From sequence record NC_052658.1: 64,000 nucleotides of DNA. One strand, 5' to 3'. Below the pieces are notes generated by a model. The model was not told the DNA's origin. It made no database searches and saw only the letters and a program-made list of their open reading frames with translations. Source of the stretch: Escherichia phage nepoznato. Each line of letters starts with the position of its first letter. Position 1 is the stretch's first letter. Shown here piece after piece: positions 8,829 to 35,089 of this stretch. The position numbers were made by a program, and so were the translations under genes.

Positions 8829-9109
8829 TAGGAGGTAAAGTGGGAATCGAAGATATCAAAGGTTATAAACCGCATACCGATGACAAAATTGGTAAAGTGA
8901 ATGCTATTAAAGATGCTGAAGTTCGATTAGGATTAATCTTTGATGCTCTAATGTCTGAATTGTGGGCTGAACTGGATGATTGTGAAGATTTGGAAGAGTC
9001 TACCAATATATCCACCCGCCTTGACCAAATTTCAATAGCAAAGACTAAGTTGAAAGAAGCTTCTATGTGGGCCTGTCGTTCCGTTTTCCAACCAGAGGAG
9101 AAATACTAA
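8801..9109 (+). CDS. hypothetical protein (true start possibly GTG near 8840)
   Basis: Track ORF; AGGAGG followed by GTG about 40 nt inside. Confidence 0.4.
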   Translation: MASIFFKLLIGGKVGIEDIKGYKPHTDDKIGKVNAIKDAEVRLGLIFDALMSELWAELDDCEDLEESTNISTRLDQISIAKTKLKEASMWACRSVFQPEEKY

Positions 9110-9640: not shown

Positions 9641-9669
9641 TTGACAGAAATCTGGAAGCTTGATAAACT
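9641..9669 (+). promoter_or_regulatory. sigma70-type promoter
   Basis: TTGACA, 17-bp spacer, TAAACT; directly after terminator and before RBS GAGGAG of next gene. Confidence 0.55.
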
Positions 9670-9699: not shown

Positions 9700-10635
9700 A
9701 TGGTGTTAATTGGTAGCCGTGCATTACAAATTCATGCTATGGATATGGGAAAAGACTTGTATCGCCCTTGTGTAGATTTAGATTACCTCTGTACAGAACA
9801 AGAATGGGAAGAATTATCAAAAATGTTCTCTCAAGATGAGTTTGTTGAACTTGTAGAGCGTAAAGGGAACAAGGGCCATGTCAAAATGATAGCTGGTGCA
9901 CATTTGGAATACGATATTGCTTCTCAAGGAGATAGCACAGAAGCTTTGATTAGTTATTGTGAAGACTCTGATGATATTCGTCGAACTTACGCTGGACACG
10001 TTGTTGCTCCTTTAGATGTGCTCTACCTTCTTAAAATGAGTCATCGTTTTAAAAAGGATAGTCCTCACTTCTTTAAAACTATGAAAGATATTCATTTCAT
10101 GCGGTCACTGGGCGCAAAGATCCCAGAAAATCTTAAGAGTATTTATGAGTTGCGTGAGAAAGAAACATACACTTACTCTCATCCAAACTTAAACGTGAGA
10201 AGTAAAGACTTCTTTAAAGGTGATGAGGTTCCGTATGTTTATGATCATGACTCTATTCATGAAGCAATCGCAGTAATGGATGCTCCAGCATATAAATCTT
10301 ATATGAAAGATGGAAGTGAAGTTATGACCAGCAAAGAAAAGTTTTTTGCTCAACCAAAACATGTGCGCCTGTTAGGTGTTTATGAAGAAGCGTGTGTTTT
10401 GGCTTTGGAACGTTCACAAATTCCTTTCGGTGAAGAGATCGGAGGTCCAACCCCTAAGCAAAGTTTTATGATGGCTTTATCTAAAGTTTGCACATCTATC
10501 ACTAGTGGTTGGTTTCGTGAATATGCCTATGAATCCTTCCATGTCGTGATGAAGCTTTATGAAAGTATGGGAGAAGATGATTACATCAAAAGATTCCACG
10601 CTAATAAACACTTACTTAAACCTTTTGAGGAATAG
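9700..10635 (+). CDS. hypothetical protein (311 aa)
   Basis: Long ORF after promoter with RBS; no confident domain. Confidence 0.55.
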   Translation: MVLIGSRALQIHAMDMGKDLYRPCVDLDYLCTEQEWEELSKMFSQDEFVELVERKGNKGHVKMIAGAHLEYDIASQGDSTEALISYCEDSDDIRRTYAGHVVAPLDVLYLLKMSHRFKKDSPHFFKTMKDIHFMRSLGAKIPENLKSIYELREKETYTYSHPNLNVRSKDFFKGDEVPYVYDHDSIHEAIAVMDAPAYKSYMKDGSEVMTSKEKFFAQPKHVRLLGVYEEACVLALERSQIPFGEEIGGPTPKQSFMMALSKVCTSITSGWFREYAYESFHVVMKLYESMGEDDYIKRFHANKHLLKPFEE

Positions 10636-10636
10636 T

Positions 10637-11308
10637 ATGGGGAGGAAATTAGAAAACCTGTCTGGAATGGTATTCAATGGTATAACAGTTCTTGATGTAG
10701 CAATTAAGGAGACTGGATGATCTACAAAATGGAATTGTATTTGTCATTGCGGTGAGAAGTTTGTTACTACAGCCGAAAGATTAAAATCTGGTAAAACTAA
10801 ATCTTGTGGTTGTGAGCGTTACCATTACAAGTTCATTGAGGATAGATATACATATAATTCCTACAATGCCATGATAGACAGGTGCACCAATGAGAACTCA
10901 CCGAATTATCCTAAGTATGGAGGTAGTGGAGTTTCTGTATGCTGTAGATGGTTAGAGAAGGGGGACTTAGGTTTTTTGAATTTCGTTGAGGATATGGGTA
11001 GTAGACCACAAAACACAACCTTAAACAGAATTAATTCTGCTGATGTTTATAGCAAAGAAACCTGTGAGTGGGCTTCACTCGCAATGCAATCTTATGATCA
11101 AAAACTAAGGAAAGATAATCTATCCGGTATTTGTGGGGTAAAATACAGAAAAGATAGGGGCAAATGGATTGCATACATCCGAGTCAATGGAGAGCATATT
11201 AGTTTATACTATGGTAACAGTAAAGAAGAAGCTATTCGTAAACGGAAGGAGGCAGAGATGTTATATTATGATAGGGCTAAGGTGAAACCTTACGAAGGAG
11301 GTTATTGA
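10637..11308 (+). pseudogene. AP2-domain homing-endonuclease-like ORF interrupted by in-frame TGA near 10718
   Basis: Continuous frame from ATG 10637 except one TGA after 27 codons; downstream Cys-rich C.C.CG...SCGC motif and AP2-like GVKYRKDRGKWIAYIRVNGEHISLYYGNSKEEAIRKRKEAE. Confidence 0.4.
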
Positions 11309-11309
11309 T

Positions 11310-11708
11310 ATGGGTTGGTGTGATCAGTCACAAAGTTACTTCAAAGTAACACATGCGGATCTCAACAAAGCAAGAGTGAAGTTGTTGAGTATCGAAAAAG
11401 AAACAGTGGCTATTGACAAACGTCTCCGAGAGAGTAAAGTGGTAATCACTTCTTGGTTTGGACTGAAACGTAAAGTCATGACGCAACGAGAGCATGTAGT
11501 TAAAAATATGCACGGTTGGGCTTGGTTCCACGATATGGCAGAACATTTGGGATACATTTCTCCTGAAGAACATGATCTCTTGGAGTTACGCTACCGCCTT
11601 CCAGATGTAGAAGATTTAGATTTGTGGATCAGTTCAGAACAGATCTTCCTAACAGAAAGTGATTGGCGTAAAGTTATGGCTTGTCTTGAATGGAGGGGTA
11701 ATGAGTAA
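11310..11708 (+). CDS. hypothetical protein
   Basis: 132-aa ORF. Confidence 0.45.
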   Translation: MGWCDQSQSYFKVTHADLNKARVKLLSIEKETVAIDKRLRESKVVITSWFGLKRKVMTQREHVVKNMHGWAWFHDMAEHLGYISPEEHDLLELRYRLPDVEDLDLWISSEQIFLTESDWRKVMACLEWRGNE

Positions 11709-12384
11709 AACAGTTTTGTCTATGTTTGACGGATCTGGGATCATGGTGTTACGTTATGCCGAAGCAGGTCACAAGTGTTTTTGTGTAAACGCTGATGAAG
11801 GGGACCACGGTAAATACGAGGTTAGGATGGAGCACCCAAACATAACCTATGTGAATGCTTGGATAGATTCTACATTCAACCCTGAAGATCATGGAATACC
11901 TAAACCCGATATTATTTTTGGATTTCCACCTTGCACTATGTTAGCAGGTAGTGGTAGCAAACACGAACGCAGCACAGAGGAATTAGATGAAGCTTTAGCT
12001 AATATTCGTGTAGTGGAAGATTTGGGTAACAAATACAATGTTCCTTGGATGATTGAGAACCCAGTAGGTAAACTTTCAACCTTATGGCGTAAACCAGATT
12101 TTTACTTTGATCCTTATGAGTATGGTGGGTATTTGTTTGAAGAGGAAGGAAGCTTTCATCCTAAAATGCCTACCCGTGATGGGTATACAAAGAAAACTTG
12201 TATTTGGCACGGCAATGGTTTTGTTCAACCAGTGAAGAAACCAGTAGATCATATAGGCTGCTTCTGGGGTTGGAAAAGCTTAGGTGGAGCTAGTGCAAAA
12301 ACAAAACAACTTAGATCACTAACCGCACGTGGTTTTGCTCGTGCAGTGTTTTTGTCTAACAATCTTCTAGATAAGGAGAAATAA
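11701..12384 (+). CDS. C5-cytosine methyltransferase-like protein (short)
   Basis: Motif I-like SMFDGSG, motif IV-like GFPPCT, motif VI-like MIENPVG; shorter than canonical C5-MTases. Confidence 0.45.
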   Translation: MSKTVLSMFDGSGIMVLRYAEAGHKCFCVNADEGDHGKYEVRMEHPNITYVNAWIDSTFNPEDHGIPKPDIIFGFPPCTMLAGSGSKHERSTEELDEALANIRVVEDLGNKYNVPWMIENPVGKLSTLWRKPDFYFDPYEYGGYLFEEEGSFHPKMPTRDGYTKKTCIWHGNGFVQPVKKPVDHIGCFWGWKSLGGASAKTKQLRSLTARGFARAVFLSNNLLDKEK

Positions 12385-24159: not shown

Positions 24160-24381
24160 TTATTTCCATTCCCCTTGGTGTTCTTTGATCTCATAAGAGT
24201 AGTATTCGAACATGCTCATACAAACCACACCAGACATTTCTAAACAAAGAGGTTTACTATTATAAAAGGCACTTATCATTCTTCCAGCTTTATCTGCTGA
24301 CTCTTTAGTATCACATCCACAAACTGTTCTCACCCAAGGATCAGGGCCATCATATTTAAGACGCACAATCCACATGATCAT
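24160..24381 (-). CDS. hypothetical protein
   Basis: 73-aa ORF. Confidence 0.45.
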   Translation of the reverse strand: MIMWIVRLKYDGPDPWVRTVCGCDTKESADKAGRMISAFYNSKPLCLEMSGVVCMSMFEYYSYEIKEHQGEWK

Positions 24382-24605
24382 TCTTCCATCTCAAACCATT
24401 CAGGGAACACTTTGCGGAAGACCCGCGTGTTTTCTAAGAGAAATTCCAACTCTTTTTCCAAATCTGCGTTCCAACCGTTTATTTTAACACGGATTGCCAA
24501 TGCACTTGCACGGCGACTCAATTCTTGACAGATTGGATCACGCAGAACTATTGAGTCATAAAACTGACAAACAGCCTCAAGTTCATACCAGTTATAATCC
24601 GACAT
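24378..24605 (-). CDS. hypothetical protein
   Basis: 75-aa ORF. Confidence 0.45.
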   Translation of the reverse strand: MSDYNWYELEAVCQFYDSIVLRDPICQELSRRASALAIRVKINGWNADLEKELEFLLENTRVFRKVFPEWFEMEE

Positions 24606-24931
24606 TATTCATCCTCCTCTGCAATACGATCTCTTACCCAATTAATCCTGTCCACGTTCAGGTGACATACCTCTGCATCTGATTCTAAGACATATGCATC
24701 GTAGTTCTCATTGAAAGGGAGTGCTTGACTCAACCCTTTGTGGTAAAACTGTGCGTGCATTTCATCTGACAAGGTTGTTATAAGGGGATTGTAATTACCT
24801 CTGTGCACATAATCGAACAAGTTGGCACACAAACCACAATCCCGCCGAAAAGGTTTACCATCAGGAGCACCAACATCAATCCATGCTAGATAAATTTTAT
24901 AAAACTCCATCAACCTTGTGCTTGTTTTCAT
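24605..24931 (-). CDS. hypothetical protein, GLC.NL/LPFN paralog family
   Basis: FYKIYLAWI..GAPDGKPF..DCGLCANLFDYV ... LPFN. Confidence 0.5.
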   Translation of the reverse strand: MKTSTRLMEFYKIYLAWIDVGAPDGKPFRRDCGLCANLFDYVHRGNYNPLITTLSDEMHAQFYHKGLSQALPFNENYDAYVLESDAEVCHLNVDRINWVRDRIAEEDE

Positions 24932-25169
24932 TTAGCCACCTCGTTAGTTTTTCTTGCTCTTTGTTTGCGCGTTCTAAGCTTCTGAACTTTAAACAGAGGG
25001 AACGAGAATCCCTACCCATGCACAAGCTTTCATCTAAGCTGTGCTCCCCAACCAACCAAAGAGAGTATGTTTGAACATCTAACCCATAGTTTCTGTCTTT
25101 CCATAATCTCACCCCAAGAACATCAAAAGGAGCTTCCGCGACTAAAGAAAGAAACCGATCTTTATTCAT
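24897..25169 (-). CDS. hypothetical protein
   Basis: 90-aa ORF. Confidence 0.45.
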   Translation of the reverse strand: MNKDRFLSLVAEAPFDVLGVRLWKDRNYGLDVQTYSLWLVGEHSLDESLCMGRDSRSLCLKFRSLERANKEQEKLTRWLNENKHKVDGVL

Positions 25170-25231
25170 ATTACACCACCTTGCTCACGTTGATAATGTA
25201 TGTATACCATACATAAAATAAATGTCAAGGC

Positions 25232-25432
25232 TTATCGACACAGATAGTTGTAACGATCTGCTTTATCCTCGGCTTCAGCAAAGTCAGCAATCAAGGAAGT
25301 TTTGAGTTCTTCCAACTCTTTCACCCAAGAGTCGTAATCGTTCTGTGTTTCTCCAATAGTTTGGAGAAAACAATCGTCGTAGCCAATAGACATGGCTAAC
25401 TCGATAATACGTTCCAGTTTTTCTTCCATCAC
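25232..25432 (-). CDS. hypothetical protein
   Basis: 66-aa ORF. Confidence 0.45.
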   Translation of the reverse strand: MMEEKLERIIELAMSIGYDDCFLQTIGETQNDYDSWVKELEELKTSLIADFAEAEDKADRYNYLCR

Positions 25433-25791
25433 TTCTCTCCTTCTACAGACTTCTGTTTAACATAAAAGTAAGCACCACGAGCAAGATACAAATCATGTTC
25501 AATATCGCTCACAGGAAAACCATCTGGATTTTTAAAACCGTCTTCTACAGCCAAAATGAGAGATCGTAAACTGATAGCTAACAACTCCATTTGATCTTGT
25601 AGTTTTCTATTTTCTGCATAAAGGTTTTTGCATTTTTGTTCTGCATTTTTCCATTGTTCTAATGCATGATCATAGTTTCGCATAAGGATAGCTTTTTCTT
25701 GTTCACGTTTAAAAGTTTCTTCACAAATGAAACCCGTGCCTAAACCAGTTTCTTCATCTTTGACAAACACTTCAACAAAATCTTTAGACAT
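25429..25791 (-). CDS. hypothetical coiled-coil protein
   Basis: Track ORF 25429-25923; start moved to internal ATG preceded by AGGAGA, removing overlap. Confidence 0.45.
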   Translation of the reverse strand: MSKDFVEVFVKDEETGLGTGFICEETFKREQEKAILMRNYDHALEQWKNAEQKCKNLYAENRKLQDQMELLAISLRSLILAVEDGFKNPDGFPVSDIEHDLYLARGAYFYVKQKSVEGEK

Positions 25792-25792
25792 A

Positions 25793-26056
25793 TTATCTCC
25801 TATTTGCTTTTGGATACTCCCAACCCTCTGGGAGATCTTCTTTACACATCCACTCAAAAGGCCAGCGACAATAACTGTGCCACTTTCCATCGAGATACAA
25901 GCAATCTTCATCCACTGGTCCACAAGGGTTGATAACTACAACACACCCTTTTGCTCGCCAATATTGAACTATTTCAGGGTAAAAACAAGAAACGTCGGTC
26001 CACTCCCAAATACGTTCATCATTCAAACGGTATGCTGCTGGCAATGTCTCTTTCAT
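25793..26056 (-). CDS. hypothetical Trp/Cys-rich protein
   Basis: 87-aa ORF. Confidence 0.45.
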   Translation of the reverse strand: MKETLPAAYRLNDERIWEWTDVSCFYPEIVQYWRAKGCVVVINPCGPVDEDCLYLDGKWHSYCRWPFEWMCKEDLPEGWEYPKANRR

Positions 26057-26060
26057 ATTA

Positions 26061-26507
26061 TTAAACCTCTGTCAAAGAGAAACGCCAATCCTTACTACTA
26101 CCTACACCAAGGAAGATATAGTCTCCGGTACTAACGGAATATCTCCAAGCGGGAATCCAATCAGGAATCTCTGGCTTATGGCTGTAGCCATAACGCTCGC
26201 CACTCGAATCTGTTGCAATATAATTAACAAATTCAGGAACCTCTAAAGTTTCACCTTGATACTCTACACGCTTGAAGCCATCTTCCACTTCTTTCTCACC
26301 TTCTACCAGAAGGGCAAGAAGTTTGATGTGAGGGCAAGTGAAATCTTGTCCTGGATAACGTGAACGGATATCTGTTAACAATGCGACTACAGCATCCGAT
26401 AACTCTTTATAATCCTCATATCTTACAAATGTACCTTCTGTCGGATCATCAGGACACAAACGCCAAACATCGTTGCAGTTTACAGCATAATGTCTCATTT
26501 TAGTCAT
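26061..26507 (-). CDS. hypothetical protein
   Basis: 148-aa ORF. Confidence 0.5.
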   Translation of the reverse strand: MTKMRHYAVNCNDVWRLCPDDPTEGTFVRYEDYKELSDAVVALLTDIRSRYPGQDFTCPHIKLLALLVEGEKEVEDGFKRVEYQGETLEVPEFVNYIATDSSGERYGYSHKPEIPDWIPAWRYSVSTGDYIFLGVGSSKDWRFSLTEV

Positions 26508-26579
26508 AAATACCTCTATTCATATATTAAGAAACCCAAAATAATAACCAGAACAATGAAAATGATAGTCTCTATCATA

Positions 26580-26828
26580 TTACCAAGCTGCCACTACCCC
26601 AGTGCGTAGGGTTTCTTCATACCCCCAAATATCTGCACTAAGAGCAACAGCAGTCCATTCTGGGGACCAAGTAAAACCCAACAGATCTGTCATCTTTTCA
26701 GCATCTTTTTTAATGCTTTCTTCATCAGAGAAAACACGGTAAAGATCTTCCAACTCTTTTGTAATCTCTGCACGTTCTTCTTCGGTAATCGGTGTTCCTA
26801 CACGATCAGTAGTAAAAACATTCAGCAT
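26580..26828 (-). CDS. hypothetical protein
   Basis: 82-aa ORF. Confidence 0.45.
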   Translation of the reverse strand: MLNVFTTDRVGTPITEEERAEITKELEDLYRVFSDEESIKKDAEKMTDLLGFTWSPEWTAVALSADIWGYEETLRTGVVAAW

Positions 26829-26837
26829 AATATCCCC

Positions 26838-27236
26838 TTATCGTTGCGTACAATCAGCTTCTAGAGTAAGAACATTCGTTATTGTTTTATCATTTTTTAG
26901 AAATGCAAACCAAGCCAAAGTGTCTCGATACTCTGTGCGCATCATCACAACTTCGGTAGTGCCAATAAACTGCTGTGAACCGTACATAGAACTTCCATCT
27001 TTACTCTTTCCTCCTGTGTTTTGAAGAATACCGCTCATCAAAGCACCACCCGAATTTTTAAGGATAAAAGAGTTATCTTTATTAATGACAACAGAAGCCA
27101 TTTTCTTAGGACCAGAAATCACTTCACCTTTCAGATTTTTAACAACTACATCTGATACACACTCATAAACTTGAGACGCATTTGCTGTTCCAAGAGATGC
27201 AATGAGTAACAATAAACCTACGATAATCTTTTTCAT
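26838..27236 (-). CDS. secreted or lipoprotein-like protein
   Basis: N-terminal signal peptide MKKIIVGLLLLIASLGTANA. Confidence 0.55.
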   Translation of the reverse strand: MKKIIVGLLLLIASLGTANASQVYECVSDVVVKNLKGEVISGPKKMASVVINKDNSFILKNSGGALMSGILQNTGGKSKDGSSMYGSQQFIGTTEVVMMRTEYRDTLAWFAFLKNDKTITNVLTLEADCTQR

Positions 27237-27331
27237 ATAAACTCTCCTCTTTGTTTACCCGATGCGCCCCTGTTGGGCGGAAAGGGTTGTACGCAAAATT
27301 TTTAGCTCCAATCGTCGGGTGTCCCGACTCC

Positions 27332-27538
27332 TTACGCTTTTAATGTTTTAACAGAATGACAAGCTTTGCAAACCATAACCGGAACAAGTTCGTCTCCACT
27401 ATCCGCATAAATCACTGTTTTCTTCATTCTGCCACCACATGAACAATACTCTGTATGATCCGCTGGAATATTAAATATTCCGTAATCACTTTCATACTGT
27501 TTCTTACATATGGACACTGCTTTTGTAAAACAAGACAT
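27332..27538 (-). CDS. small zinc-ribbon-like protein
   Basis: 68 aa with CSCGG and CKACH. Confidence 0.45.
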   Translation of the reverse strand: MSCFTKAVSICKKQYESDYGIFNIPADHTEYCSCGGRMKKTVIYADSGDELVPVMVCKACHSVKTLKA

Positions 27539-27540
27539 AC

Positions 27541-27762
27541 CTACTCCGAAAGAACATTCACTTCGTCAGAGAAAAATACGTAATCACAACCTTCCCAAAC
27601 ATCTTCTTCAAACCACTCCCATCCCTCAACTTTGGACATTTCTTCTATCGTAACAAAGAATGTTGTCATATCATCACTAACAAGATGTGCTTCAACAACA
27701 AAAGGAATCTGAACATTCTCAAAACCAACATAACCCAATACATCACAAACTCTAATTTTCAT
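27541..27762 (-). CDS. hypothetical protein (paralog of 30752-30982)
   Basis: Shared W.W.E....G.DYVFF C-terminal pattern. Confidence 0.45.
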   Translation of the reverse strand: MKIRVCDVLGYVGFENVQIPFVVEAHLVSDDMTTFFVTIEEMSKVEGWEWFEEDVWEGCDYVFFSDEVNVLSE

Positions 27763-27763
27763 A

Positions 27764-27964
27764 TTATGCTCCTTTGTAGATTATGTTGGTGCGTTCACAC
27801 TCTGCCACCAGCAAGCGATTAGCAATGTTGTCCATAGGAACATCAATCTCTACGCTCCAGGCATTGATATACACTTCTTCAATCTTTGCTCCAAGCATTT
27901 GTGCGATCAGAGCAACAGCCCCAGCATATTCAAGTTTAATCTCAATTACCATTTTGCACCTCAA
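27764..27964 (-). CDS. hypothetical protein
   Basis: 66-aa ORF. Confidence 0.4.
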   Translation of the reverse strand: MRCKMVIEIKLEYAGAVALIAQMLGAKIEEVYINAWSVEIDVPMDNIANRLLVAECERTNIIYKGA

Positions 27965-27966
27965 GG

Positions 27967-28167
27967 TTATTTATCTTGCTTATATCTTACAAGGCGATCA
28001 CACTCCAGGTCAAGAAATTTCTCCGCATTTCGTTCATGTTTGAGCACAATACATTGTTCTTTCAAGTCTGTAGCTCTTTGCTGCGCGGCTCCTGGGTCAA
28101 AATCCCAAAGCCATGCGGCGAAAAGAACAACCATAACAATTGCCAAGAAAACAAACACTATAGGCAT
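27967..28167 (-). CDS. small membrane protein
   Basis: Track ORF 27967-28203; start moved to ATG after AGGAGG; hydrophobic IVFVFLAIVMVVLFAAWLW. Confidence 0.4.
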   Translation of the reverse strand: MPIVFVFLAIVMVVLFAAWLWDFDPGAAQQRATDLKEQCIVLKHERNAEKFLDLECDRLVRYKQDK

Positions 28168-28472
28168 TGCACATCCTCCTGTGTAGCATGATCTTTTACC
28201 CATTTTATACGGGCAGCATTCAAATGCAATAGCCCGTTTCTTTGTGCAAAATCATATTTAAACCAGTCTCCGTCATCAAACGGGTATTCTTCAGACAACC
28301 CTGCTTCTCGAAATTGCATTTGCATTTCATAATTTAGGTCATCATAACCACCAGACCAAAGATAGAGGCAACTACATAATCCTTTATCATGCCAGAAAGG
28401 ATTATTATCTGGAGCACCAGCTAATAGCCAGTTATGATATGCCTGATAAAATTCTTTAAGTTCCTCTGACAT
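28158..28472 (-). CDS. hypothetical protein, GLC.CL/YPF paralog family
   Basis: FYQAYHNWLLAGAPDNNPF..DKGLCSCLYLW ... YPFD. Confidence 0.5.
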   Translation of the reverse strand: MSEELKEFYQAYHNWLLAGAPDNNPFWHDKGLCSCLYLWSGGYDDLNYEMQMQFREAGLSEEYPFDDGDWFKYDFAQRNGLLHLNAARIKWVKDHATQEDVQCL

Positions 28473-28664
28473 TTAACCTCCTGTATGCAGTGTTGAAAGA
28501 TACGCAGCAAAAGCATTCTCGGCTGTTTTCACCTCCTCTTCAAGATCTTCACGCTCTGCTGGCGTTAATGCATTCCGCACAGCAGCGTCTGCTTCTCGGA
28601 TTTTTCTTACTAAACGTGAAACATCTTTCAATTGTTGAAAAGTAGCCATAATCTTTCTCCTGTT

Positions 28665-28949
28665 TTAGTTAGTGTCACGCCATTCGGCAATCTCTTCGGC
28701 TAAACGATCACAAGAATCGAAAGCCACTTTACCTTTAGTCTGATTTTCATGTCGTACTTCCTTCAATGCGAGTAATGCGTTCACCAGATTATCAACACCT
28801 TGATCATCCAGTGCGATAACATCGAAGTTAAACCCTGTATCAGTTGGGACTTTACGTTTTATGGTGTAATAGTCTCCTTCATGACGTTCAACATACGCGT
28901 ATGGGTAACTGCTGTTTGGATCATGTTTCACGCGAATAGATGTTTTCAT
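28665..28949 (-). CDS. hypothetical protein
   Basis: 94-aa ORF. Confidence 0.45.
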   Translation of the reverse strand: MKTSIRVKHDPNSSYPYAYVERHEGDYYTIKRKVPTDTGFNFDVIALDDQGVDNLVNALLALKEVRHENQTKGKVAFDSCDRLAEEIAEWRDTN

Positions 28950-28964
28950 GTTTTGTTCTCCTCT

Positions 28965-29216
28965 TTAATCAAACCAGTTGTATTCGGAAGGGTAACGAGC
29001 GTAGTTTGGCTTGTACCCCAGTCTTTTCATCTTAACAGACATACGAGTGAAGCCAAAAGTTGTTTTGCCCTTAGACATAAACTTCTTCCCACTCTTCATT
29101 GGCTTCTTAGGGTTTTTGATCGTCTGGTGTAACGCTCGCGCAAGCCACAAAGTGTATGCGCTAGGCACTTGATTAACTTTCATCTTGTTACCTTTCATCA
29201 TTTCACCTCGGACCAA
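28965..29216 (-). CDS. hypothetical basic protein
   Basis: 83 aa, K-rich. Confidence 0.45.
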   Translation of the reverse strand: MVRGEMMKGNKMKVNQVPSAYTLWLARALHQTIKNPKKPMKSGKKFMSKGKTTFGFTRMSVKMKRLGYKPNYARYPSEYNWFD

Positions 29217-29497
29217 TCAATAGTGATCCACTCATATGCTCCGTTTAGGTCCATTTCTTTATAAACAACAAGCCCACGCTCACGAAGAATTGCTACTGCT
29301 TCATCCATCCATTTCACCTGATTGTAGATTTCCCCTGGGTGGGTAGGGGAATTATCCAGACCAAAATCGGATGGCGTGAAATTCCTTGAAGAGTTTCCCG
29401 CTCGTGCTTCAGCAAAACAAGTCTCGATCACTTCTTCAACAGGGAAGTTGAAGGAAGCTTCTTTTGCAATACGGCGTAACTGTTCAGTCAGATTCAT
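29198..29497 (-). CDS. hypothetical protein
   Basis: 99-aa ORF. Confidence 0.45.
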   Translation of the reverse strand: MNLTEQLRRIAKEASFNFPVEEVIETCFAEARAGNSSRNFTPSDFGLDNSPTHPGEIYNQVKWMDEAVAILRERGLVVYKEMDLNGAYEWITIDWSEVK

Positions 29498-29524
29498 CTT
29501 ATTCTCCTTTCGTTGTGTGAAACA

Positions 29525-29962
29525 TTATAACAGATCTAATGCTTTCAACTCTTCTTTCAATGATTCAAGCAGGTCACATTCAACGTCAATCAGAGATAAC
29601 AAGTGACCAACAATGCCTTCCAGATGTTGATACTCACTATAACTTATAAATTCAGAATTGTAAACAGAAACATCCTTAGTTTCTTTCACAACTTCCCCCG
29701 CAGACACGCAAATAAAAAAGTTACGCTCTCCGCGAGCTAACAATATCTCCCAACTTCTGAACGGATACTGTCCAGCCTCAATAATATCCCCGCTGTCCAA
29801 TAAAGTCAATGAGCAAACAGACCCTGATTCACTAACATCTTCGACGCGGAAACAAGACCCGTCAATCAAAGCCGCCATTTTGAAATTTTCATCAGAGATC
29901 ATAGAGAAAGCTTCACATGCAGCTTTACTTTTGAAACAGTAAACAGCATTAACTTTAAACAT
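29525..29962 (-). CDS. hypothetical protein
   Basis: 145-aa ORF. Confidence 0.5.
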   Translation of the reverse strand: MFKVNAVYCFKSKAACEAFSMISDENFKMAALIDGSCFRVEDVSESGSVCSLTLLDSGDIIEAGQYPFRSWEILLARGERNFFICVSAGEVVKETKDVSVYNSEFISYSEYQHLEGIVGHLLSLIDVECDLLESLKEELKALDLL

Positions 29963-30050
29963 AACATTCCCCTTTTAAACAAAAGACACACCGATGGTAG
30001 CAACAACCAGACGCTTATAAACTTCAACCTCTTCTGTAGGATTAGCCATT

Positions 30051-30503
30051 TTATGCTCTGCCTAGTTCATCATACCATTTCAAAGCGTCTTTTGGAAGCA
30101 TACCAAAATCTTCTTTTAGTTCTTTTTCAATCTCTTCTTTCAGTTCATTCAACACTTGCAGTTGGCGTATTTTCTTCCGTAACAAAGCTTCCCGTTCACT
30201 GTTGCTTGGTGTTACTTCATTTCCTGCTATCATCACATATCCTGTCGGAGAGCAAGGAAGATAGTCATCAATATCTTCTAAAGCATAACGATAATTGGAG
30301 TCCAGGAAGTTTACATGCACACGATCACATCCAAACAAGGTAGCACGGAATACTTCGTAACGAGTTTCAGATAGGATATGTTGCACACAGACAATACCTA
30401 CATCATTTTGCACTGCACAGGTTACATCCAACAAACTTGAATGTTCTTTGACATAATCTGCAACACATTGCACATGTGCTTCCAGTATAGATAGTTGTTT
30501 CAT
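30051..30503 (-). CDS. hypothetical protein
   Basis: 150-aa ORF. Confidence 0.5.
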   Translation of the reverse strand: MKQLSILEAHVQCVADYVKEHSSLLDVTCAVQNDVGIVCVQHILSETRYEVFRATLFGCDRVHVNFLDSNYRYALEDIDDYLPCSPTGYVMIAGNEVTPSNSEREALLRKKIRQLQVLNELKEEIEKELKEDFGMLPKDALKWYDELGRA

Positions 30504-33677: not shown

Positions 33678-33739
33678 TGGGCTTGCTGTATTGCTCGCCC
33701 TACGTGATAAATAATAATATAAGGGTGATCCCGTGTCAA
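33678..33739 (-). promoter_or_regulatory. PeSL-like early promoter with weak leader hairpin (unit 1)
   Basis: Minus strand TTGACA, 17 bp, TATTAT, TATCACGTAGG, weak GC hairpin, RBS. Confidence 0.5.
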
Positions 33740-33877
33740 TAGGTAGAATTGTAAAGATTTGATAGTTTATCTCTTTGATGCTTTGTTGTTTGATAGATGT
33801 TAGCTATCAATATATAGCGGGGTCGTCCGGTGATTATCTTCCCTGTTTCCAGTGCCGCCCGTTCAATAAGCATAACA

Positions 33878-33905
33878 AAAAACAGGACAAAAACAAGCCC
33901 TGTTT
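33878..33905 (-). terminator. probable intrinsic terminator (minus strand)
   Basis: ACAGG...CCUGU hairpin followed by U-run on minus strand. Confidence 0.35.
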
Positions 33906-33913
33906 TGTAAAGA

Positions 33914-34117
33914 TTAGATGATCTGCATATCTTCCACGATAATTTCTAATTTCCAAACAAGATGATCTAAGCTCCCTGATAAAAATGATTCCGATACATA
34001 ACCGCCATCGGACACCGTAGCAAGGATCTCGCCATTTGCTTGCTCTTTGATTTGAACATCCAGGCGGTTAGCCTTTGCTTTGTTCAGGACGGCGATCAGG
34101 CGGTTAGCTGTAGTCAT
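33914..34117 (-). CDS. hypothetical protein (cassette 2 ORF)
   Basis: Start moved to internal ATG (MTTANRL) 20 nt after leader hairpin. Confidence 0.5.
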   Translation of the reverse strand: MTTANRLIAVLNKAKANRLDVQIKEQANGEILATVSDGGYVSESFLSGSLDHLVWKLEIIVEDMQII

Positions 34118-34140
34118 GATGTTTCTCTCTTCTGTTGTGA

Positions 34141-34197
34141 GCGGCACTATTGCCGCCCTACGTGATAAACTTTACTACCTGTTGCGCCTGCTGTCAA
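34141..34197 (-). promoter_or_regulatory. PeSL-like early promoter with leader stem-loop (unit 2)
   Basis: Minus strand TTGACA, 17 bp, TAAAGT, TATCACGTAGG, GCGGCA-AUAG-UGCCGC. Confidence 0.6.
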
Positions 34198-34198
34198 A

Positions 34199-34303
34199 CT
34201 ATTTTTTCTTTGCTTCCATTCGTCTAAGGTTACGGCTTGACTTGTTACGCAAGGCGCTCAAATCATCATAACCTTTAAAAGGTTGCATATTGTTCGGATT
34301 CAT
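34199..34303 (-). CDS. small basic protein (about 34 aa)
   Basis: Minus ORF MNPNNMQPFKGYDDL... with RBS AAGGGG; stop abuts -35 of unit 2; approximate. Confidence 0.3.
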   Translation of the reverse strand: MNPNNMQPFKGYDDLSALRNKSSRNLRRMEAKKK

Positions 34304-34313
34304 GCTACGCCCC

Positions 34314-34592
34314 TTAACGGTTATAAACGTCGTGAATAGTGATAAAGGCGCTACGACCATAAGCCGCCAAATCGGGATTGATCCAAGTGTTATCTAACAG
34401 TGTTTCAAGGACGATAGAATCATCATGAATAGCATCATAGAAATCAGGATGTATGATCGTTTCAATATCGTCCGGTGTTAGTTCCCAATTAAGGTTGCAA
34501 ACCGCTAAAACGTCTACCAATAACTTCCAATCTTGCAAATTAGTGGTTAATACTGTTTTCATTTCTTCGGTAGTGAGTTTAACGATGGTCAT
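34314..34592 (-). CDS. hypothetical acidic protein (cassette 3 ORF)
   Basis: 92-aa ORF about 20 nt after leader hairpin. Confidence 0.5.
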   Translation of the reverse strand: MTIVKLTTEEMKTVLTTNLQDWKLLVDVLAVCNLNWELTPDDIETIIHPDFYDAIHDDSIVLETLLDNTWINPDLAAYGRSAFITIHDVYNR

Positions 34593-34612
34593 GATATTTT
34601 CTCTTTTTGATG

Positions 34613-34673
34613 AGGCGGAAAGTGTTCCCGCTCTCGATGTGAAACATTATACAACACTAAAAACTGATTGCAA
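34613..34673 (-). promoter_or_regulatory. PeSL-like early promoter with leader stem-loop (unit 3)
   Basis: Minus strand TTGCAA, 16 bp, TATAAT, TTTCACATCGAGA, GCGGGAA..TTCCGCC hairpin. Confidence 0.55.
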
Positions 34674-34683
34674 GTGTTTTTAA

Positions 34684-35013
34684 TTATCGCTTGCTATTCT
34701 CTTTCTCTACTTCCCCGATAGCATCGCAAAATTGATTGATAACATCAGGGTGAACGTCAATAGCGTCAAACAATCCGCTATTAGTTGCATTTTGTAAAGC
34801 AATAGACAATTCAGCCAGGGCGTTCAATTGTTTTACACGGAATTGATCGCGGATTGAATCCATATATTCCATCACTGCACTTTCCAGTGTTTCCCATGTA
34901 GTCGCTGCACCTTCGCCTACAGTTACATCCCACAAATTAGACTCGATTTGAGTCAGTACTACAGTTGGGCGACCAGCAACAACACTGCGGGCTAATTCGA
35001 TTTCATTAAACAT
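34684..35013 (-). CDS. hypothetical protein (cassette 4 ORF)
   Basis: 109-aa ORF. Confidence 0.5.
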   Translation of the reverse strand: MFNEIELARSVVAGRPTVVLTQIESNLWDVTVGEGAATTWETLESAVMEYMDSIRDQFRVKQLNALAELSIALQNATNSGLFDAIDVHPDVINQFCDAIGEVEKENSKR

Positions 35014-35020
35014 TTTATTT

Positions 35021-35079
35021 TCCTCTTTGTGGGGAGAACTATTCTCCCCTTCATGTAAAACAGTCTACAGGTTTATTTC
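35021..35079 (-). promoter_or_regulatory. PeSL-like early promoter with leader stem-loop (unit 4)
   Basis: Minus strand TTGACA, 16 bp, TAGACT, TTTTACATGAA, GGGGAGAA-UAG-UUCUCCCC. Confidence 0.6.
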
Positions 35080-35089
35080 TCAATGTCAA

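Follow-up and report, generated by a model that had tools for sequence, protein, structure and literature searches.

The window, i.e. the whole stretch of 64,000 nucleotides of Escherichia phage nepoznato (NC_052658.1) that was analysed, contains a reading frame of 223 codons on the forward strand whose sole interruption is a TGA at codon 28. The genes and features found at this locus are the following.

9700-10635 (+): the DUF7277-DUF7275 gene nepoznato_77, the constant upstream neighbour of the gene family
10637-11308 (+): the disrupted, putatively mobile gene, very probably a pseudogene, with 223 codons and a stop codon; the product of intact orthologues has 223 aa
10706-10755 (+): by-product of the mutation, as read from the sequence, with a new ATG at 10717 that stands 5 nt after the AAGGAG of 10706-10711
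10718-10720 (+): the in-frame TGA, codon 28; all close orthologues read CGA (Arg), with C in place of T10718
10976-11308 (+): nepoznato_78, the only part annotated in the public record (MN850571), 110 aa with a TTG start
11310-11708 (+): the downstream gene nepoznato_79 (phrog_16551), a divergent allele that travels with the insert

The disrupted frame is tightly packed between its neighbours. Its ATG at 10637 sits 1 nt past the TAG of the upstream DUF7277-DUF7275 gene, its terminal stop is a TGA at 11306-11308, and the ATG of the downstream gene (11310) begins 1 nt past that stop. No promoter of its own was found for the broken gene; the sole upstream promoter-like site (9641-9669) lies ahead of the DUF7275 gene. 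When a sense residue is put in place of the internal stop, the product matches PHROG 374 ('HNH endonuclease') in one stretch from residue 2 to residue 213 (E=6.8e-61). The annotated fragment, nepoznato_78, appears in databases either as 'HNH endonuclease' or as 'AP2/ERF domain-containing protein'. Four proteins encoded near the broken gene are identical to nepoznato_77, _79, _81 and _82, and for two of them the sequence is known from no genome other than this one of 151,514 bp. The ATG at 10717 was created by the C>T change itself and opens an out-of-frame ORF of 12 codons, MIYKMELYLSLR*, by which the gene is not restorable and which is probably meaningless.

Two observations concern the upstream side of the locus. 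About 1.5 kb upstream, among small ORFs, there is a 91-aa ORF (8834-9109, +) with an Acb2/Tad1 hairpin domain (PF24729, E=1.3e-19, 70.5 bits), a family that consists of phage sponges for CBASS/Thoeris signalling nucleotides. In vB_EcoM_005 (NC_055783.1; L010, 638-1501), the DUF7277-DUF7275 gene and several of its neighbours bear names such as 'prohead assembly scaffold protein' and 'tail tube protein'; the names given to the DUF7275 gene are without Pfam support and look like annotation-transfer errors.

The nearest relative of nepoznato is DIJ07P2 (Phapecoctavirus, OZ035771.1), in which codon 28 is CGA (Arg). The region is 99.7% identical to DIJ07P2, and the match to 68 other phAPEC8-like phages covers the flanks only, at 84-92% identity. 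Base 10718 is the sole difference between nepoznato and DIJ07P2 across 10453-11804 (1,352 bp). Of 53,180 bases aligned between the two genomes, 1,548 are different (2.9%), and the immediate flanks show 34 mismatches over 2,852 bp. Had 10453-11804 diverged at the rate of the flanks, it should contain about 16 differences, and the Poisson probability of finding one or none is about 2e-6. Because the TGA is the single difference in 1,352 bp as against a divergence of 2.9%, and because the nepoznato copy carries no other lesion, we regard the stop codon as very recent. Judged from these alignments, the CGA>TGA transition appears to have taken place after the cassettes of nepoznato and DIJ07P2 had diverged from each other.

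The sense codon is found wherever close orthologues were found. Allele P0001 has CGA at codon 28 in all five Logan contigs that carry it, and Arg28 is present in 10 out of 10 protein variants of the 90%-identity cluster, which together come from over 30 contigs. In more distant family members the alignment column 28 contains R, V, K or S, and never Cys. Each of the homologues with 58-64% identity (VR7, phage 212, Aeromonas phage CC2, EcoM_005 and ECO111 5-P) is one uninterrupted ORF of about 216 aa that aligns collinearly from M1 and shares the MGR start, and therefore the part downstream of the TGA is not an independent gene. The homologues of VR7, VR26 and phage 212 were considered as candidates for split genes and rejected, as the homologue itself is intact and the second annotated feature under the match is just the adjoining upstream gene. 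Comparison with the L017 and L012 alleles gives dN/dS ratios of 0.07 and 0.15, respectively, and the family is thus a functional coding gene under strong purifying selection. Exact-pattern scans of viral and metagenome contigs for the C or the T allele gave 0 matches. Pattern scans, look-ups of the truncated products (145 and 110 aa) and contigs sharing the downstream allele yielded no further assembly with the TGA; apart from nepoznato, the downstream-gene allele occurs on one contig found, which contains an intact 223-aa gene.

These results bear on an earlier note on this DNA, which had described one frame from 10637 to 11308 with a single TGA after codon 27, as is confirmed by the position of the TGA at codon 28. 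The note offered a recent nonsense pseudogene as one of its options, and this option is supported by the CGA (Arg) of the orthologues together with the lack of an independent downstream gene. It had also pointed to related phages as the place to look for a sense codon, which is present as CGA in all close orthologues, and to the possibility that in orthologues the downstream part is a gene with its own start, which was seen in no homologue.

Two genes downstream of the broken frame there is a DNA methyltransferase gene (11701-12384, +; phrog_757, E=6.5e-85) that is called 'Dcm' or 'DNA methyltransferase' in relatives and has no Pfam match. Should this enzyme methylate the mutated CG to 5-methylcytosine, the C>T change could have been promoted by deamination.

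The architecture of the intact protein was studied with an AlphaFold2 model built from 17 family members (mean pLDDT 81.9). The model suggests three modules, a CapR-like zinc ribbon, a weakly HNH-like beta-beta-alpha domain and an AP2 domain, with the following positions.

10676-10813 (+), codons 14-59: predicted CapR-like zinc-ribbon module, with beta strands 16-23, 31-36 and 41-45 and cysteines C34, C36, C38, C57 and C59
10826-11122 (+), codons 64-162: predicted helical plus beta-beta-alpha domain, with strands 128-131 and 143-146 and helix 148-154
11126-11269 (+), codons 164-211: predicted AP2-type DNA-binding domain, three strands plus helix

The TGA falls inside the zinc-ribbon module. 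Residues 14-59 correspond to positions 13-66 of the 67 positions of the Pfam CapR homology domain PF21817 with 15.2 bits, below the cut-off of 24.2, and the profile matches 2 of the 17 family members (best E=0.0015). The zinc-ribbon pattern CxCxC ... CxC is present on the beta ribbon, C36, C38 and C57 are invariant across the family, and the module is duplicated in longer family members. At the other end of the protein, the AP2 fold, i.e. a three-stranded sheet packed on a helix, is present in the model. The score of this protein against PF00847 is 18 bits (cut-off 33.3), while 11 out of 17 family members match the same profile (best E=7.8e-6) and the family profile matches WRI1 with E=1.3e-4.

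The invariant residues of the central domain are R131, Y138, C143, W145 and Q151, and Arg131, which is invariant in 17 out of 17 members (LNRIN or LDRIN), stands at the end of the first strand, where the catalytic His of an HNH enzyme would be. A nuclease assignment by sequence was tried and rejected, as no significant match was obtained in Pfam, NCBIfam, the PDB sequence search or hhalign. HNH families (Pfam HNH, HNH_3 and related) gave no match at E<=1 in the 17 members, NCBIfam gave no match, a PDB sequence search with the central-domain profile gave nothing significant, and the hhalign comparison of this profile with a canonical HNH_3 protein returned a probability of 0.4%. The label 'HNH endonuclease' comes only from PHROG families, and the name rests on annotation transfer. 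The modelled fold is compatible with a divergent beta-beta-alpha nuclease, which is not proof of one; a nuclease function is what we infer, and the label is used here in the putative sense.

The earlier note had seen a Cys-rich motif and an AP2-like domain downstream of the TGA; in the model, C34, C36, C38, C57 and C59 stand on the beta ribbon, and codons 164-211 form the predicted AP2 domain. The same note had called the frame homing-endonuclease-like. As far as mobility is concerned the description stands, since the pattern described below is homing-like; as for the endonuclease part, there is no HNH profile match and an Arg occupies the position of the catalytic His.

The distribution and the surroundings of the gene were compared among phages that carry it and phages that do not. 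Two further features are needed for this comparison.

11285-11308 (+): tail of the broken gene, AAACCTTACGAAGGAGGTTATTGA (KPYEGGY*), a copy of the original DUF7275 3' end that holds the GGAGG ribosome binding site of the next gene
10480-11690 (+), approximate borders: mosaic block with 54-83% identity to gene-less Phapecoctavirus genomes, as against 97-100% outside

The gene is absent from 68 of the 69 matching Phapecoctavirus records, so that there is one carrier besides the window. In phAPEC8, ESCO5 and other gene-less Phapecoctavirus genomes the DUF7275 gene is joined directly to the next gene. Among T4-like phages the gene is covered in 5 of 196 matching records, and the others among the matches listed are without about 650 bp at the site. 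When present, the gene starts 9-13 nt past the conserved ...NQHLIKPF codons that close a DUF7277-DUF7275 gene, and this position is constant in five unrelated lineages, namely Phapecoctavirus, the L017-L020 lineage, Gaprivervirus (VR7, VR26, 212), Dhakavirus (EcoM_005) and Aeromonas phage CC2.

The insertion appears to have left a scar. In the gene-less phAPEC8, the DUF7275 gene ends with AAGCCTTTTGAAGGAGGTTATTAA (KPFEGGY*) and the gp192/gp193 junction contains AAGCCTTTTGAAGGAGGTTATTAATATG. In nepoznato the upstream gene ends with …KHLLKPFEE*, with AAACCTTTTGAGGAA at 10618-10632; that is, the upstream gene now reads …KPFEE* as in the L017 lineage, and it is the mobile gene that ends with …KPYEGGY*. 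In comparison to phAPEC8 and ESCO5, the mosaic block takes up the 3'-terminal 150 bp of the DUF7275 gene as well as the entire downstream gene, and it coincides with the stretch (10453-11804) that is identical to DIJ07P2 except for base 10718. Because of the sporadic presence, the constant site, the mosaic flanks and the junction scar, the gene behaves, in the genomes compared, like a free-standing homing element, and the conserved 3' end of nepoznato_77 is presumably its target region.

Several observations extend this picture to the neighbourhood. A paralogue of about 36% identity adjoins the DNA ligase gene in ESCO8, VEcB, PaulScherrer and muut (Phapecoctavirus/Justusliebigvirus-type; hits H43-H48), and therefore the family has at least one other insertion site; no copy of this paralogue is found in the window. 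In L012 (4065-4601), as well as in L013-L015, a second, canonical HNH_3 gene (178 aa, PF13392, E=5e-14) sits between the downstream gene and the methyltransferase gene, on related Phapecoctavirus contigs that carry the intact gene. Nepoznato is without this HNH_3 gene, and thus this short stretch can be called a hot spot of mobile nuclease genes. In the window, several stretches of up to about 6 kb (24167-30317, 33705-35083) have no megablast match in DIJ07P2 and others show 86-92% identity, so the genomes of nepoznato and DIJ07P2 are mosaics well beyond the locus of the broken gene.

Taken together, we think it very likely that a real and very recent CGA(Arg28)>TGA transition inactivated a free-standing mobile gene of nepoznato that would encode a homing-like, three-module DNA-binding protein and putative nuclease. 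This explanation draws on the sense codon in the orthologues, the collinearity of the homologues, the presence/absence pattern, the constant site and the mosaic flanks. It has to be weighed against three others. One of them is that the TGA stems from faulty sequencing or assembly, in which case the real phage would have CGA and an intact gene. It would account for a change of a single base at which every other allele found has C, as well as for the lack of an independent assembly carrying T, and the lysate from which the genome was obtained held two phages. However, the genome was sequenced by Illumina NextSeq in paired-end mode to x120 coverage (CLC assembly), a depth at which a consensus substitution error is very unlikely, and the second phage of the lysate, Jahat, was reported as a separate phage and should not supply the allele. 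A GATC abuts the changed base, and a base-calling artefact at this motif was considered and rejected: positions that differ from DIJ07P2 show no excess within 1 nt of GATC (50 observed, 43.8 expected) or at CCWGG (10 observed, 14.1 expected), which argues against systematic base-calling artefacts at methylation motifs. An error is thus highly unlikely, and the mutation is better taken as real.

The two remaining explanations accept the TGA and assume that some protein is made in spite of it. UGA is the leakiest stop codon of E. coli and K-12 has a weak RF2 allele; nepoznato was isolated on MG1655, and small amounts suffice for homing enzymes, so the allele might be attenuated rather than null, with programmed read-through or selenocysteine incorporation as extreme forms. 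We give this very little credence. A stop at codon 28 occurs in no orthologue, and the TGA at 10718-10720 is directly followed by U, with which termination is most efficient in E. coli. The stretch of 91 nt at 10700-10790, around the codon and past it, folds with -12.4 kcal/mol, no more stably than shuffled sequence (z=+0.64), and reveals no stimulatory or SECIS-like structure; the 64-kb window contains no tRNA, and a UCA anticodon, which would mark a suppressor, is missing from the 10 tRNAs of DIJ07P2. The selenocysteine form is further contradicted by the homologous residues, in which Cys does not occur. TGA is the stop of 12 out of 51 long ORFs in the window and of the broken gene itself, and therefore the genetic code is the standard one. 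Code reassignment, a suppressor tRNA and a read-through structure were accordingly rejected, and the suggestion of the earlier note that the gene may need stop-codon read-through finds no support. The other explanation, which we likewise consider very improbable, is that the part past the TGA is expressed alone as a beta-beta-alpha plus AP2 product, either from ATG 10871 (145 aa), the first in-frame ATG, GTG or TTG past the TGA, or from TTG 10976 (110 aa). The 110-aa ORF is called in the public annotation, AAGGGGGA is located upstream of its TTG, and an AP2 domain is able to bind DNA alone. On the other hand, ATG 10871 is without a Shine-Dalgarno sequence, the MGR N-terminus is conserved in all homologues and a separate downstream gene exists in none, and look-ups showed that neither product is a called gene in other assemblies. 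In addition, deletion of the CapR module ends the activity of CasPR (bioRxiv 10.64898/2026.02.23.707548). A second copy of the family that could complement the broken gene was not found in the window.

If, as we think, a recent nonsense mutation inactivated the gene, translation from ATG 10637, which would be coupled to the upstream DUF7275 gene, would halt after 27 residues inside the zinc ribbon, and the nepoznato allele would give no full-length protein. The intact gene would insert as a homing element immediately 3' of the DUF7277-DUF7275 genes, presumably after cleavage of the empty site by its own protein, and the mutation may have arisen since selection no longer acts on a homing gene that has become fixed. 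The case is one of ordinary gene decay and not of unusual decoding, and the TGA raises no new question on genetic decoding.

With respect to the family as a whole, we tentatively propose a reading that we ourselves find rather doubtful: a site-specific mobile element with a non-canonical beta-beta-alpha nuclease, in which Arg131/Tyr138 would stand for the HNH His and the CapR and AP2 modules would target the protein to the 3' ends of DUF7277-DUF7275 genes in phage families that are not related to each other, or else a CasPR-like protein that is nuclease-free and spreads by another route. Under both of these readings the nepoznato copy would be a dead allele and a natural null control. As nepoznato (TGA) and DIJ07P2 (CGA) have cassettes that differ in one base, they are a ready pair for testing the role of the CapR/HNH-like/AP2 protein in its own spread, and the constant position adjoining the DUF7275 gene is a concrete candidate for the target site. 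In terms of annotation, nepoznato_78 should be replaced by a pseudogene at 10637-11308 instead of a 110-aa 'HNH endonuclease'.

It is instructive to compare this gene with known systems. IPA-HNH homing genes, found in ICP1 and other phages, encode an atypical HNH plus a C-terminal AP2 domain, and the ICP1 copy gp115-gp116 is inactivated by a frameshift; CapR zinc fingers, in turn, are DNA-binding modules of T5orf172 homing genes (Barth et al. 2023, PMC10448857). Like the IPA-HNH genes, the gene described here is free-standing, has a C-terminal AP2 domain and an HNH-like region missed by the Pfam HNH profiles, and, besides occurring sporadically, adjoins the edge of a mosaic block in a region also invaded by other homing genes. 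The presence pattern and the flanks also resemble the 'HEG island' boundaries of the same study (PMC10448857). The differences are that here a CapR-like zinc ribbon comes first at the N-terminus, the HNH-like unit is central, and an Arg is at the position of the catalytic His. In this last respect PacI restriction endonuclease (PDB 3m7k) can be mentioned, an HNH-type beta-beta-alpha-metal enzyme in which a Tyr is thought to replace the HNH histidine.

The CasPRs that have been characterised by experiment, which are CapR plus AP2 proteins, are transcriptional silencers of cas genes and not nucleases (bioRxiv 10.64898/2026.02.23.707548). The two families share an N-terminal CapR-type Cys cluster followed by a C-terminal AP2 domain. 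By the reported residue numbers, the cysteines are spaced alike (C34/36/38 and C57/59 here, C33/35/37 and C56/58 in CasPR-IB1), and two conserved AP2 arginines are 11 residues apart in both (R171/R182 and R138/R149, respectively). By the same numbering, the spacer between the modules is about 33 residues longer in the present protein, approximately the size of the conserved beta-beta-alpha unit, and CasPR-IB1 appears to be without such a stretch. The settings are also different, since CasPRs are found in acr loci of Bacillota prophages whereas this family is found at one DUF7275-adjoining site in lytic phages of Gram-negative hosts.

A further parallel is offered by the free-standing seg/mob homing genes of T4-like phages, which are likewise intergenic between conserved genes, polymorphic for presence and absence, flanked by divergent tracts and in some copies inactivated, even though the present protein is neither a GIY-YIG nor a canonical HNH enzyme. 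Goddard and Burt reportedly described, in 1999, a homing cycle of invasion, fixation and decay. Unlike in such a decay cycle, the dN/dS of this family is 0.07, and decay, as seen in nepoznato, is here the exception.
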